A DNA stretch of 64,000 nt from Escherichia coli (GTDB taxonomy: Bacteria; Pseudomonadota; Gammaproteobacteria; Enterobacterales; Enterobacteriaceae): NCBI RefSeq assembly GCF_016903815.1, contig NZ_CP069973.1. One strand, written 5' to 3'. Below the pieces are notes generated by a model, which was not told the DNA's origin, searched no databases, and saw only the letters and a list, made by a program, of their open reading frames with translations. Positions within the stretch are counted from its first letter, which is position 1, and each line of letters begins with the position of its first letter. Position numbers and translations under genes: made by a program. This document shows positions 9,754-31,368 of this stretch, piece by piece.

Positions 9754-10086
9754 GATCAATTTTTTATGATCAAGCTTTTTTTTAACCGCCATTAACACAA
9801 TAAACAGGGGGTTATGAAACTTATCCTGCGCCCTGTAAACCACTTTGTTTTTATGGTTATTCCCCCATGACCTCATTACTAAACTTTGTCGTTAGCAGTG
9901 ATAATTTTCTCTTCGCTTTGCTCTGCAAGCCTCGATATCTGTGGGTTCTCAGCTTTTTCCCGCGCTGAAATTTAGTCGGTAACAAGAACGTTAGCTGACG
10001 AAGCATCTTGATAAAAATCAAAAATAAATACGCTTGTAACGCCTTGCGTATTGAATCGACGGTTGTATTTCATATATAACTCAAAT

Positions 10087-10105
10087 GATAATAATGATCA
10101 TTCTC
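10087..10105. promoter_or_regulatory. Candidate Fur box upstream of the chuT operon
   Basis: gataataatgatcattctc matches the Fur consensus at about 15 of 19 positions; lies in the chuA-chuT divergent region just 5' of the chuT ATG at 10129. Confidence 0.55.
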
Positions 10106-10128
10106 AATTTGATAAGAGTTCTCATATT

Positions 10129-18500: not shown

Positions 18501-19028
18501 ATGATTTTTCTCATGACGAAAGATTCTTTTCTTTTACAGGGCTTTTGGCAGTTGAAAGATAATCACGAAATGATAAAAATCAATTCCCTGTCAGAGATCA
18601 AAAAAGTAGGCAATAAACCCTTCAAGGTTATCATTGATACCTATCACAATCATATCCTTGATGAAGAAGCGATTAAATTTCTGGAGAAATTAGATGCCGA
18701 GAGAATTATTGTTTTGGCACCTTATCACATCAGTAAACTAAAAGCTAAAGCGCCTATTTATTTTGTTAGTCGCAAAGAAAGTATCAAAAATCTTCTTGAG
18801 ATTACTTATGGTAAACACTTGCCCCATAAGAATTCACAATTATGTTTTTCACATAATCAGTTCAAAATTATGCAACTGATTCTGAAAAATAAAAATGAAA
18901 GCAATATCACGTCGACGCTCAATATTTCGCAACAAACATTAAAGATTCAGAAATTCAACATTATGTACAAGCTGAAACTAAGACGTATGAGCGACATCGT
19001 CACCCTGGGTATCACATCTTATTTTTAG
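18501..19028 (+). CDS. gadE: LuxR-family acid-resistance activator GadE (175 aa)
   Basis: MIFLMTKDSFLLQGFWQLK... 175 aa, preceded by a ~800-bp AT-rich regulatory region after hdeD. The ORF-track start at 18423 is an upstream extension. Confidence 0.9.
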   Translation: MIFLMTKDSFLLQGFWQLKDNHEMIKINSLSEIKKVGNKPFKVIIDTYHNHILDEEAIKFLEKLDAERIIVLAPYHISKLKAKAPIYFVSRKESIKNLLEITYGKHLPHKNSQLCFSHNQFKIMQLILKNKNESNITSTLNISQQTLKIQKFNIMYKLKLRRMSDIVTLGITSYF

Positions 19029-27916: not shown

Positions 27917-29314
27917 TTATTGTTTATCCTGCATATACGGCGTATAAACCCCGTTCAGACTGTGCAGGAAAGCTACGATATCATCCACATCCTCCTGCGG
28001 CAGCTCTTTGCCTACCTGATAGCGCAACATCAGTTTCACCGCCCCGTCCAGCGTCGGCACATCACCGCGATGGAAGTACGGTGCCGTTAGTGCAACGTTA
28101 CGTAAACCGGGTACTTTCTGACGCAATTTATCGCGCTCTTCTTTAGTCACATTCATACGACCAATATCCGCCGCCGTAATTTCACCAAAGTTAAAGTCTT
28201 TTTTCAGCCCCAACGGTTCGAAGGAACGTCCGCCGAGAATAATACCACCATGACAAGTTGCACATTTATTATCTTTAAATAATTGATAGCCTTTTTTCTG
28301 TTGTGCCGTCAGCGCATTCTCATCTCCACGCAACCATTTATCAAATGGGGAATCTGGCGTAATTAATGTTTTCTCAAATTCAGCAATGGCATCAGTAATA
28401 TTTTCGCCACTGAAACCTTGCGGATAGACTTCGAGGAACTGCGCTTTAAGCTGCGGATCTTTTTCCAGCTTAGCAATAATTTCGTCCCAGGATTTCGACG
28501 CCATTTCAATCGGATTCAACGGCGGTCCACCAGCCTGATCCTGCAATGTTGCCGCACGACCATCCCAGAACTGCTCAACGTTAAATACTGAGTTAAATAC
28601 CGTCGGCGCGTTAATCGGCCCCACTGCGCCACCAACACCAATCGATGTTTTTCTGCCATCGACGCCCCCCGCATTCAACGCATGGCAATGAGCGCATGAA
28701 ATGGTGCTATCCGCCGATAAACGGGGATCGTGATACAGCGCAAAACCCAACGCCACTTTTTGCGCATCGGTAGGCAGTTTTTGCGGGATGGGCTGCACCG
28801 GTTCATTGCGATGCTCCGGAGCAATGTCATTGCTGGCGTAATATTCCGCGCGCTGTTTTGCAATCCAGGCGAGTATTTCCGCCCGCTCTTCATCACTCAC
28901 CTTACCCGCCCAGTGTAGCGCGGTATAACGTGTTGGTGGCATGGTTTCATACTGCATCACCCATTCAATCTTATTCAGATCGCTTTGCGAAACGGGTTTA
29001 TCAGCCAGCAGAGCCGCACGCACGGCCTCGAGGTTAAAAGATTTATATCCAAGCTTAATGTCGTAATCCATCAACTGTTTCGCGCCAGGAATATAATAAT
29101 AGGCGGGTAATTCTGCCGAAGGCGTGTGGCAATAGTCGCATCCTTTTTCGCGGAGAAAGCCTAAAACCTTATTATTTTCACTGACAGCAGATGCCTGAAC
29201 ATCGGCCTGTTTACTGCGTTTATTATCGTGGTACCACACATAACCAGATAACCCTAAATAGCAAATCGCGACGCCAGCCAGGCCGATCGCGGTAATACGT
29301 GAGACCATTTTCAT
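27917..29314 (-). CDS. yhjA: Dihaem cytochrome c peroxidase YhjA/Ccp (465 aa)
   Basis: N-terminal membrane anchor and three CxxCH haem-binding motifs (CDYCH, CAHCH, CATCH). Confidence 0.9.
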   Translation of the reverse strand: MKMVSRITAIGLAGVAICYLGLSGYVWYHDNKRSKQADVQASAVSENNKVLGFLREKGCDYCHTPSAELPAYYYIPGAKQLMDYDIKLGYKSFNLEAVRAALLADKPVSQSDLNKIEWVMQYETMPPTRYTALHWAGKVSDEERAEILAWIAKQRAEYYASNDIAPEHRNEPVQPIPQKLPTDAQKVALGFALYHDPRLSADSTISCAHCHALNAGGVDGRKTSIGVGGAVGPINAPTVFNSVFNVEQFWDGRAATLQDQAGGPPLNPIEMASKSWDEIIAKLEKDPQLKAQFLEVYPQGFSGENITDAIAEFEKTLITPDSPFDKWLRGDENALTAQQKKGYQLFKDNKCATCHGGIILGGRSFEPLGLKKDFNFGEITAADIGRMNVTKEERDKLRQKVPGLRNVALTAPYFHRGDVPTLDGAVKLMLRYQVGKELPQEDVDDIVAFLHSLNGVYTPYMQDKQ

Positions 29315-29421
29315 TATTCTTCCCTCACGGTGGTGAGTTATTGTGACCCAGAAAATTTTCCAGAATGCTGCAAACGTCTCTGCGAGACAAAGCCATCATA
29401 AAAAACAGGGAGATACGCTTT

Positions 29422-29435
29422 TTGATAGGAATCAA
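29422..29435. promoter_or_regulatory. Candidate FNR box upstream of yhjA
   Basis: TTGAT-agga-ATCAA, a perfect match to the FNR half-sites, about 110 bp upstream of the yhjA start. Confidence 0.55.
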
Positions 29436-29688
29436 TCAATTACATGAATATAAACTATCAATAAGATAGCCTGTGCCTATTATCCAGATCAGGAATGGCA
29501 TATCATGATTGCGGCGAGAGCAGGATTGAATGTTCTGAAAATGAAAAACAACACGAAATCTGTATTTTTATAAATTCCATGGATATTAGTGCGTTATATT
29601 TTTTGACAGGTTAATAAACGTGATCCACCGCACGCTTTGTCGCCCACCAGGCGGAGCGAATGACTACCCTTAAAGAAAAGCCCGATAA

Positions 29689-31368
<1,680 letters not shown>

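Follow-up and report, generated by a model that had tools for sequence, protein, structure and literature searches.

The ccp (yhjA) gene of an Escherichia coli strain was found to be preceded by a perfect FNR box, TTGATAGGAATCAA (TTGATTCCTATCAA in the ccp orientation), and this 14-mer is very probably the FNR operator of the ccp promoter (probability roughly 0.9). FNR looks to be one of two required activators of ccp—necessary, that is, and not sufficient—with an OxyR tetrad lying immediately upstream of the FNR box. The ccp operator is already known, having been described in K-12 since 2007, and the finding is to that extent correct but ordinary. What is added here is the phylogenetic footprint of a fixed-spacing FNR–OxyR pair, an ancient feature of ccp across Enterobacterales, which supports the published model without changing it.

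Architecture of the ccp promoter

The DNA analysed is a 64-kb stretch (64,000 nucleotides), referred to hereafter as the window. It is of E. coli origin, the 2-kb stretch around the site being 100% identical to that of strain 7/2. This ccp/treF stretch was detected in 5422 of 5426 complete E. coli genomes, in which the two genes are annotated as ccp (cytochrome c peroxidase) and treF, and the ccp product of the window matched the MauG/di-haem peroxidase family. The two genes diverge from an intergenic region of 404 bp, within which the centre of the FNR box (29428.5) lies upstream of both start codons, at 114.5 bp from the ATG of ccp and 290.5 bp from that of treF. The features of the locus are as follows.

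27917–29314, minus strand: ccp (yhjA), a 465-aa open reading frame annotated in RefSeq E. coli as cytochrome c peroxidase; a tri-haem quinol/cytochrome c peroxidase
29315–29387, minus strand: predicted 5′ untranslated region (UTR) of ccp, about 74 nt, with the Shine–Dalgarno-like GAGGGAAG just before the ATG
29388, minus strand: predicted transcription start (G), placed from the geometry 7 nt after the −10 hexamer
29395–29400, minus strand: predicted −10 hexamer TATGAT, read from the sequence, 21 bp downstream of the FNR box
29422–29435, minus strand: FNR box, with 10 of the 10 specified bases of TTGAT-N4-ATCAA and a predicted centre at −40.5
29430–29442, plus strand: match to the IHF core consensus, AATCAATCAATTA (WATCAANNNNTTR), overlapping the promoter-distal FNR half-site; a possible competitor site, regarded as a lead only
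29444–29480, minus strand: OxyR tetrad ATGAATATAAACTAT-CAATAAG-ATAGCCTGTGCCTAT, with 14 of the 16 core positions of ATAG-N7-CTAT-N7-ATAG-N7-CTAT
29719–31368, plus strand: treF (cytoplasmic trehalase), the divergent neighbour, 549 aa; NCBIfam TreF, 1215 bits

Read in the ccp direction, the order of the elements is ATAGGCACAGGCTAT-CTTATTG-ATAGTTTATATTCAT-GTAATTGA-TTGATTCCTATCAA-(21 nt)-TATGAT-GGCTTT-G. A preliminary description of this DNA had placed a TTGAT-N4-ATCAA motif at 29422–29435 upstream of yhjA, and the pattern scan returned exactly these coordinates, with both half-sites perfect. Perfect matches to this consensus occur twice in the 64-kb window (29422–29435 and 10008–10021), as against 0.12 expected from dinucleotide-preserving shuffles, with a count of two reached in 1 of 100 shuffles; sites with at most one mismatch number 10, as against 3.2 expected. 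The OxyR tetrad, which the preliminary description had overlooked, lies nine base pairs upstream of the FNR box, with its centre at 29462 (predicted to be at about −74, within a span of −56 to −92). No other match with three or fewer mismatches occurs in the 64-kb window, where 0.06 would be expected.

The ccp promoter has no recognisable −35 element, and the FNR box takes that position. A sigma-70 scan requiring a −35 element did not call the ccp promoter, and its two hits in the scan were no more than shuffled sequences give; this miss is expected of a class II activator-dependent promoter that lacks a −35 element. With TATGAT located 21 bp downstream of the box, the FNR centre would fall at −40.5 (−40.5/−41.5) if transcription starts 7 nt past the hexamer, and the same spacing is seen in the orthologues. 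The 2007 work of Partridge reportedly placed the FNR site at about −40.5; a mapped ccp start site, or mapped site positions, were not found in the open literature, and the values of −40.5 and −74 used here are geometric inferences. Among the directly FNR-activated K-12 promoters with known starts, 19 of 23 have their site at −41.5 ± 4 (PMC3688515).

In its layout, ccp is like the class II FNR promoters narG, nirB, dmsA, and yfiD, whose FNR sites are centred between −40.5 and −42.5: a consensus box is situated about 41 bp upstream of the predicted start and replaces the −35 element, and a reasonable −10 hexamer is present. Promoters of this class need only FNR, or FNR together with nitrate regulators, for their activity and show strong ChIP-seq peaks, whereas ccp shows no peak in unstressed cells and, according to the literature, also needs OxyR. 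In the classical OxyR-activated promoters—katG, ahpC, dps, and oxyS—the OxyR footprint abuts the −35 region. The ccp promoter shares with these the four-element ATAG/CTAT tetrad, with its 7-bp intervals, upstream of the core promoter, but differs from them in that the FNR dimer, lying in between, displaces the OxyR site to about −56 to −92, resulting in a two-activator arrangement.

Conservation within E. coli and across Enterobacterales

In an alignment with K-12 MG1655, positions 29315–29482, which comprise the 5′ UTR, −10 hexamer, FNR box, and OxyR tetrad, were 100% identical base for base, with the first mismatch at 29483, immediately beyond the OxyR site. The same 14-mer is listed in K-12 at coordinate 3667319, under "yhjA/treF" and with a PatSer score of 14.16 (PMC3688515, Table S6). 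The conservation relative to K-12 asserted in the preliminary description is thus borne out. Compared with the K-12 yhjA (ccp) promoter (Partridge, Poole and Green 2007; Khademian and Imlay 2017), the locus is the same, the regulatory region is without differences, and the gene neighbours—gadA, ccp, and treF—are alike; the strain analysed here differs in having the chu island, which is absent in K-12. Since this strain carries the K-12 ccp promoter unchanged, findings on the K-12 promoter carry over to the window without qualification.

Within the species, the 30-mer around the box (29418–29447) was recovered exactly in 5393 of the 5422 complete genomes, whereas a 40-mer that adds nine spacer bases toward the −10 hexamer showed a mismatch in 1618 genomes. 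The variants of the 40-mer that were sampled fall in the spacer (ATACGC changed to ATATGC or ATACAC), and not in the box.

Individual genomes depart from this pattern. A rare box variant, TTGATAGGAGTCAA, is carried by E. coli 0H15 (NZ_CP081677.1), and another, TTGATTCCTGTCAA (in the ccp orientation), by E. albertii; both are changes of the ATCAA-to-GTCAA type, which is tolerated by FNR sites. E. coli AR_0118 (NZ_CP020048.1) carries an IS1A insertion that separates the FNR box from the ccp −10 hexamer, at a position corresponding to about 29415; judged from the sequence, this insertion should uncouple ccp from FNR and OxyR. Only the last 30% of the 2-kb query (29203–29800) found a match in E. 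coli O18ac:H14 strain 873.10 (NZ_CP061754.1). The matched part takes in the 5′ end of ccp, the promoter, and the beginning of treF, and it coincides with a feature annotated as "hypothetical protein"; most of ccp appears to have been deleted or replaced there, with the promoter kept.

Beyond E. coli, a scan for the Ccp protein with one genome per species gave 40 loci, of which 36 are Enterobacterales loci with upstream sequence. All specified bases of the FNR box are kept in 26 of these 36 loci; the number rises to 32 when one mismatch is allowed and to 34 when two are allowed in the same register. Over 20 orthologous promoters, the information content of the FNR half-sites was calculated to be 1.81 bits per column, whereas the N4 spacer had a value of 0.69 and the flanks had one of about 0.36; in the same 20 promoters, the core positions of the OxyR site reached 1.61 bits, against 0.74 for its other positions. 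Sequence divergence was unrestricted in the N4 spacer, in the flanks, and in the 21 bp that separate the box from the −10 hexamer. The −10 hexamer reads TATGAT, TATCAT, CATTAT, or CATCAT in the orthologues and keeps the same distance from the box within 1 bp. A functional promoter at this site had been proposed from the sequence in the preliminary description; the class II geometry of the box relative to TATGAT and its strong conservation in E. coli and Enterobacterales uphold that proposal.

The spacing of the two activator sites is equally rigid: in all but one of the 36 Enterobacterales loci, 33.5 bp separate the FNR centre from the OxyR centre upstream of it, and the genera with this fixed pair include Escherichia, Citrobacter, Providencia, Hafnia, Trabulsiella, Enterobacillus, and Yersinia. 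The one exception, Providencia burhodogranariea, has an OxyR–FNR distance of 44.5 bp, an increase of 11 bp, which is one helical turn. This 11-bp shift hints that both proteins may have to sit on the same face of the DNA.

Regulation of ccp and alternative readings of the FNR box

Regulation of yhjA by both FNR and OxyR in K-12 was reported by Partridge, Poole and Green (2007, Microbiology 153:1499), as cited in PMC10301912, PMC4207228, and PMC2690998. This dual control confines expression to conditions of low oxygen plus peroxide (PMC10301912, PMC4207228), so that anaerobiosis alone gives little ccp expression. Induction of ccp by H2O2 proceeds via OxyR (PMC10301912, PMC8115020, PMC12051229), OxyR induces Ccp under hypoxia (PMC8115020, PMC12051229; both reviews from the Imlay laboratory), and Ccp lets the respiratory chain use H2O2 as a terminal oxidant (PMC8115020, PMC12051229). 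FNR was found to bind in vivo at both yhjA and treF by ChIP-qPCR (PMC2690998). In addition, yhjA mRNA is about 2-fold higher anaerobically in K-12 (PMC3688515, Table S12), with the direction of the tabulated ratio taken to be aerobic over anaerobic, as judged from cyo, sdh, dms, and nar.

In the proposed mechanism, dimeric [4Fe-4S]-FNR would bind TTGAT-N4-ATCAA in anoxia, about 40.5 bp upstream of the start, where it would overlap the missing −35 element and recruit and activate RNA polymerase by class II contacts. Oxidised OxyR, which would also be needed, would bind the tetrad immediately upstream, at about −56 to −92. The ccp promoter would accordingly act as an AND gate, turned on only without oxygen and with hydrogen peroxide, and its output would be a periplasm-facing peroxidase through which the respiratory chain could use H2O2 as an electron acceptor. 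In this scheme, the sites, their geometry to the −10 hexamer, the K-12 identity, and the conservation come from the present analysis; the dependence on FNR and OxyR and the in vivo binding of FNR are taken from the literature; and the exact transcription start and the protein–RNA polymerase contacts are what we infer. The promoter so understood explains how a peroxide-respiring enzyme is confined to an oxygen-free niche that contains H2O2, such as the oxic–anoxic interface of the gut, a logic that has already been published.

With respect to the activation itself, the preliminary description had claimed FNR-dependent anaerobic activation of yhjA. The FNR part of this claim stands, given the published K-12 regulation, the ChIP-qPCR result, the identical promoter, the geometry, and the conservation, but the co-requirement for OxyR had been missed.

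Occupancy of the site by FNR has been surveyed in K-12 by Myers et al. (2013; PMC3688515). The ccp site was predicted there but gave no ChIP-seq peak for FNR in wild-type cells grown anaerobically in glucose minimal medium (Table S6), and it lies inside an extended H-NS region (3661953–3667384) and an IHF ChIP-chip peak (3667035–3667586; Tables S3, S4, and S6). The FNR peaks of the hns stpA mutant (Table S7) include no entry with K-12 coordinates starting with 3666, 3667, or 3668, and yhjA is in none of the FNR-dependent expression tables of that study. The simplest reading of the missing peak is that OxyR is inactive without peroxide and the ccp promoter is nearly off.

A refinement of FNR control, rather than an alternative to it, is that IHF and/or H-NS occlude the box in unstressed anaerobic cells and that oxidised OxyR opens the site or recruits FNR cooperatively, as an anti-silencer and not as a parallel activator; this is conceivable, if on balance rather unlikely. 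The absence of a ChIP-seq peak, despite a score above those of many occupied sites, and the overlapping H-NS and IHF signals are consistent with such occlusion, as are the overlap of the IHF core consensus with one FNR half-site and the composition of the ccp–treF intergenic region, which is 39–40% G+C and adjoins the H-NS-covered gad island. However, FNR was found at yhjA by ChIP-qPCR (PMC2690998), and the hns stpA peak table (PMC3688515, Table S7) has no entry near the site. The IHF core matches, which were searched for after the fact, are not enriched in the window (4 versus 2.8 expected), and the match at 29430–29442 is conserved only in Escherichia and Citrobacter. The rigid OxyR–FNR spacing across genera, with its sole exception being longer by a whole helical turn, would fit cooperative recruitment, but fixed spacing is equally expected if both proteins contact one RNA polymerase. 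If occlusion does operate, the AND gate would be built at the level of operator access, and not from two independent contacts with RNA polymerase.

Assignment of the box to the ccp promoter may be weighed against a role for it in the expression of treF, alone or besides ccp. Among predicted FNR targets, treF ranks as one of high confidence, and ChIP-qPCR detected FNR on the DNA upstream of it (PMC2690998), but the treF amplicon probably lies within the same 404-bp intergenic region and may not be independent evidence. Transcription of treF varied with O2 in the hns stpA mutant alone (PMC3688515, Table S11). From the box to the treF ATG is a distance of 290.5 bp, and to the sole promoter-like match oriented toward treF about 267 bp; both are beyond the range of class I or class II activation. 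Furthermore, a divergent treF next to ccp is confined to Escherichia and Citrobacter. No treF was found within 1.5 kb upstream of ccp in Providencia, Hafnia, Trabulsiella, Pluralibacter, Enterobacillus, Buttiauxella, and Yersinia, yet the FNR/OxyR module is located there at a similar distance from ccp. Its persistence at ccp without an adjacent treF assigns the module to ccp, not treF. A share for treF in this box is thus quite improbable, and treF was rejected as its target on account of distance and the loss of synteny.

Less probable again is that the box is a silent consensus match with no effect on regulation, there by accident or as a historical remnant and kept permanently covered by nucleoid proteins. 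The ccp site does belong to the 124 "silent" predicted sites of Myers et al. (2013), only 5 of which had prior evidence of FNR regulation, with yhjA not named among those (PMC3688515). Like the other members of this class of sites masked by nucleoid-associated proteins, it is listed as predicted, is peakless, and overlaps H-NS and IHF; it nevertheless has independent published evidence of function and deep conservation. FNR dependence and ChIP-qPCR binding are on record in PMC10301912, PMC4207228, and PMC2690998. A perfect consensus also occurs inside genes without function, but here the conservation is specific to the half-sites in at least seven genera in which spacer and flanks have diverged, the geometry to the −10 hexamer and to the OxyR site is fixed, and the box is near-invariant in E. 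coli (5393 of 5422 genomes) next to a polymorphic spacer.

The T/G position (TTGAT versus GTGA) discriminates FNR from CRP. That another regulator of the CRP/FNR family, such as CRP itself, binds the palindrome in place of FNR is hardly credible: CRP sites share inner half-site bases and symmetry with FNR sites (TGTGA-N6-TCACA versus TTGAT-N4-ATCAA), but both half-sites here are TTGAT and not GTGA, the orthologues keep TTGAT/ATCAA or the FNR-tolerated GTCAA, and the literature (PMC10301912, PMC4207228, and PMC3688515) assigns the site to FNR.

The ccp leader and other FNR-like sites in the window

Downstream of the promoter, the predicted fold of the ccp 5′ UTR was no more stable than that of shuffled sequence (z = −0.74), and an Rfam scan of the intergenic region returned sub-threshold noise only, with no known RNA element. 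An inverted repeat, GTCTC-GCA-GAGAC, is present at 29376–29388 on the minus strand, corresponding to the predicted +1 to +13 of ccp, and inverted repeats of other sequence occupy the same place elsewhere: GTCT-N5-AGAC or GTCC-N5-GGAC in Citrobacter, GGCCAA-TT-TTGGCC in Hafnia, and ATTGC-ACAC-GCAAT in Providencia burhodogranariea. A stem-loop at the 5′ end of the ccp mRNA was considered on these grounds and rejected: the per-species z-scores were modest, the repeat is missing in most Providencia and Yersinia, and the hairpin does not appear in the minimum-energy fold of the full 5′ UTR. A further inverted repeat, CTCAC-GGTG-GTGAG at 29324–29337, was called as a terminator-like element of the plus strand. 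Within the ccp mRNA, the 3′ arm of this repeat coincides in part with the Shine–Dalgarno-like GAGGGAAG, and the repeat could influence ccp translation initiation. In the predicted UTR fold, the bases of this repeat pair with the first ccp codons instead.

The second perfect FNR consensus of the window, TTGATAAAAATCAA, is located at 10008–10021 in the chu haem-uptake island, in the intergenic region between chuA and chuT. The chuT ATG (10129) lies 114.5 bp downstream of it, and the Fur-box-like AAATGATAATAATGATCATTCTC (10085–10107) follows it at a distance of about 70 bp. The chuTWXY genes encode the anaerobic haem-degradation enzymes ChuW and ChuY (PMC9002310), so that regulation by FNR would be physiologically reasonable. 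No account of an FNR effect at chuT was found in a literature search, and this FNR-like site is more novel than the ccp site. Of the 2236 chu-positive E. coli genomes, 2226 have the 40-mer around the site unchanged, and in about 1229 the identity over the entire chuA–chuT intergenic region is only 88%; the whole of the last 170 bp before chuT is equally conserved, however, so that the conservation of the 40-mer is not specific to the box.

Two FNR-like sites with one mismatch each, ATGATAAAAATCAA (18570–18583) and TTGATACCTATCAC (18634–18647), were also observed. By its sequence and its offset from the ccp site, ATGATAAAAATCAA matches the site upstream of gadE at K-12 coordinate 3656458, at which an FNR ChIP-seq peak was recorded (PMC3688515, Table S6).
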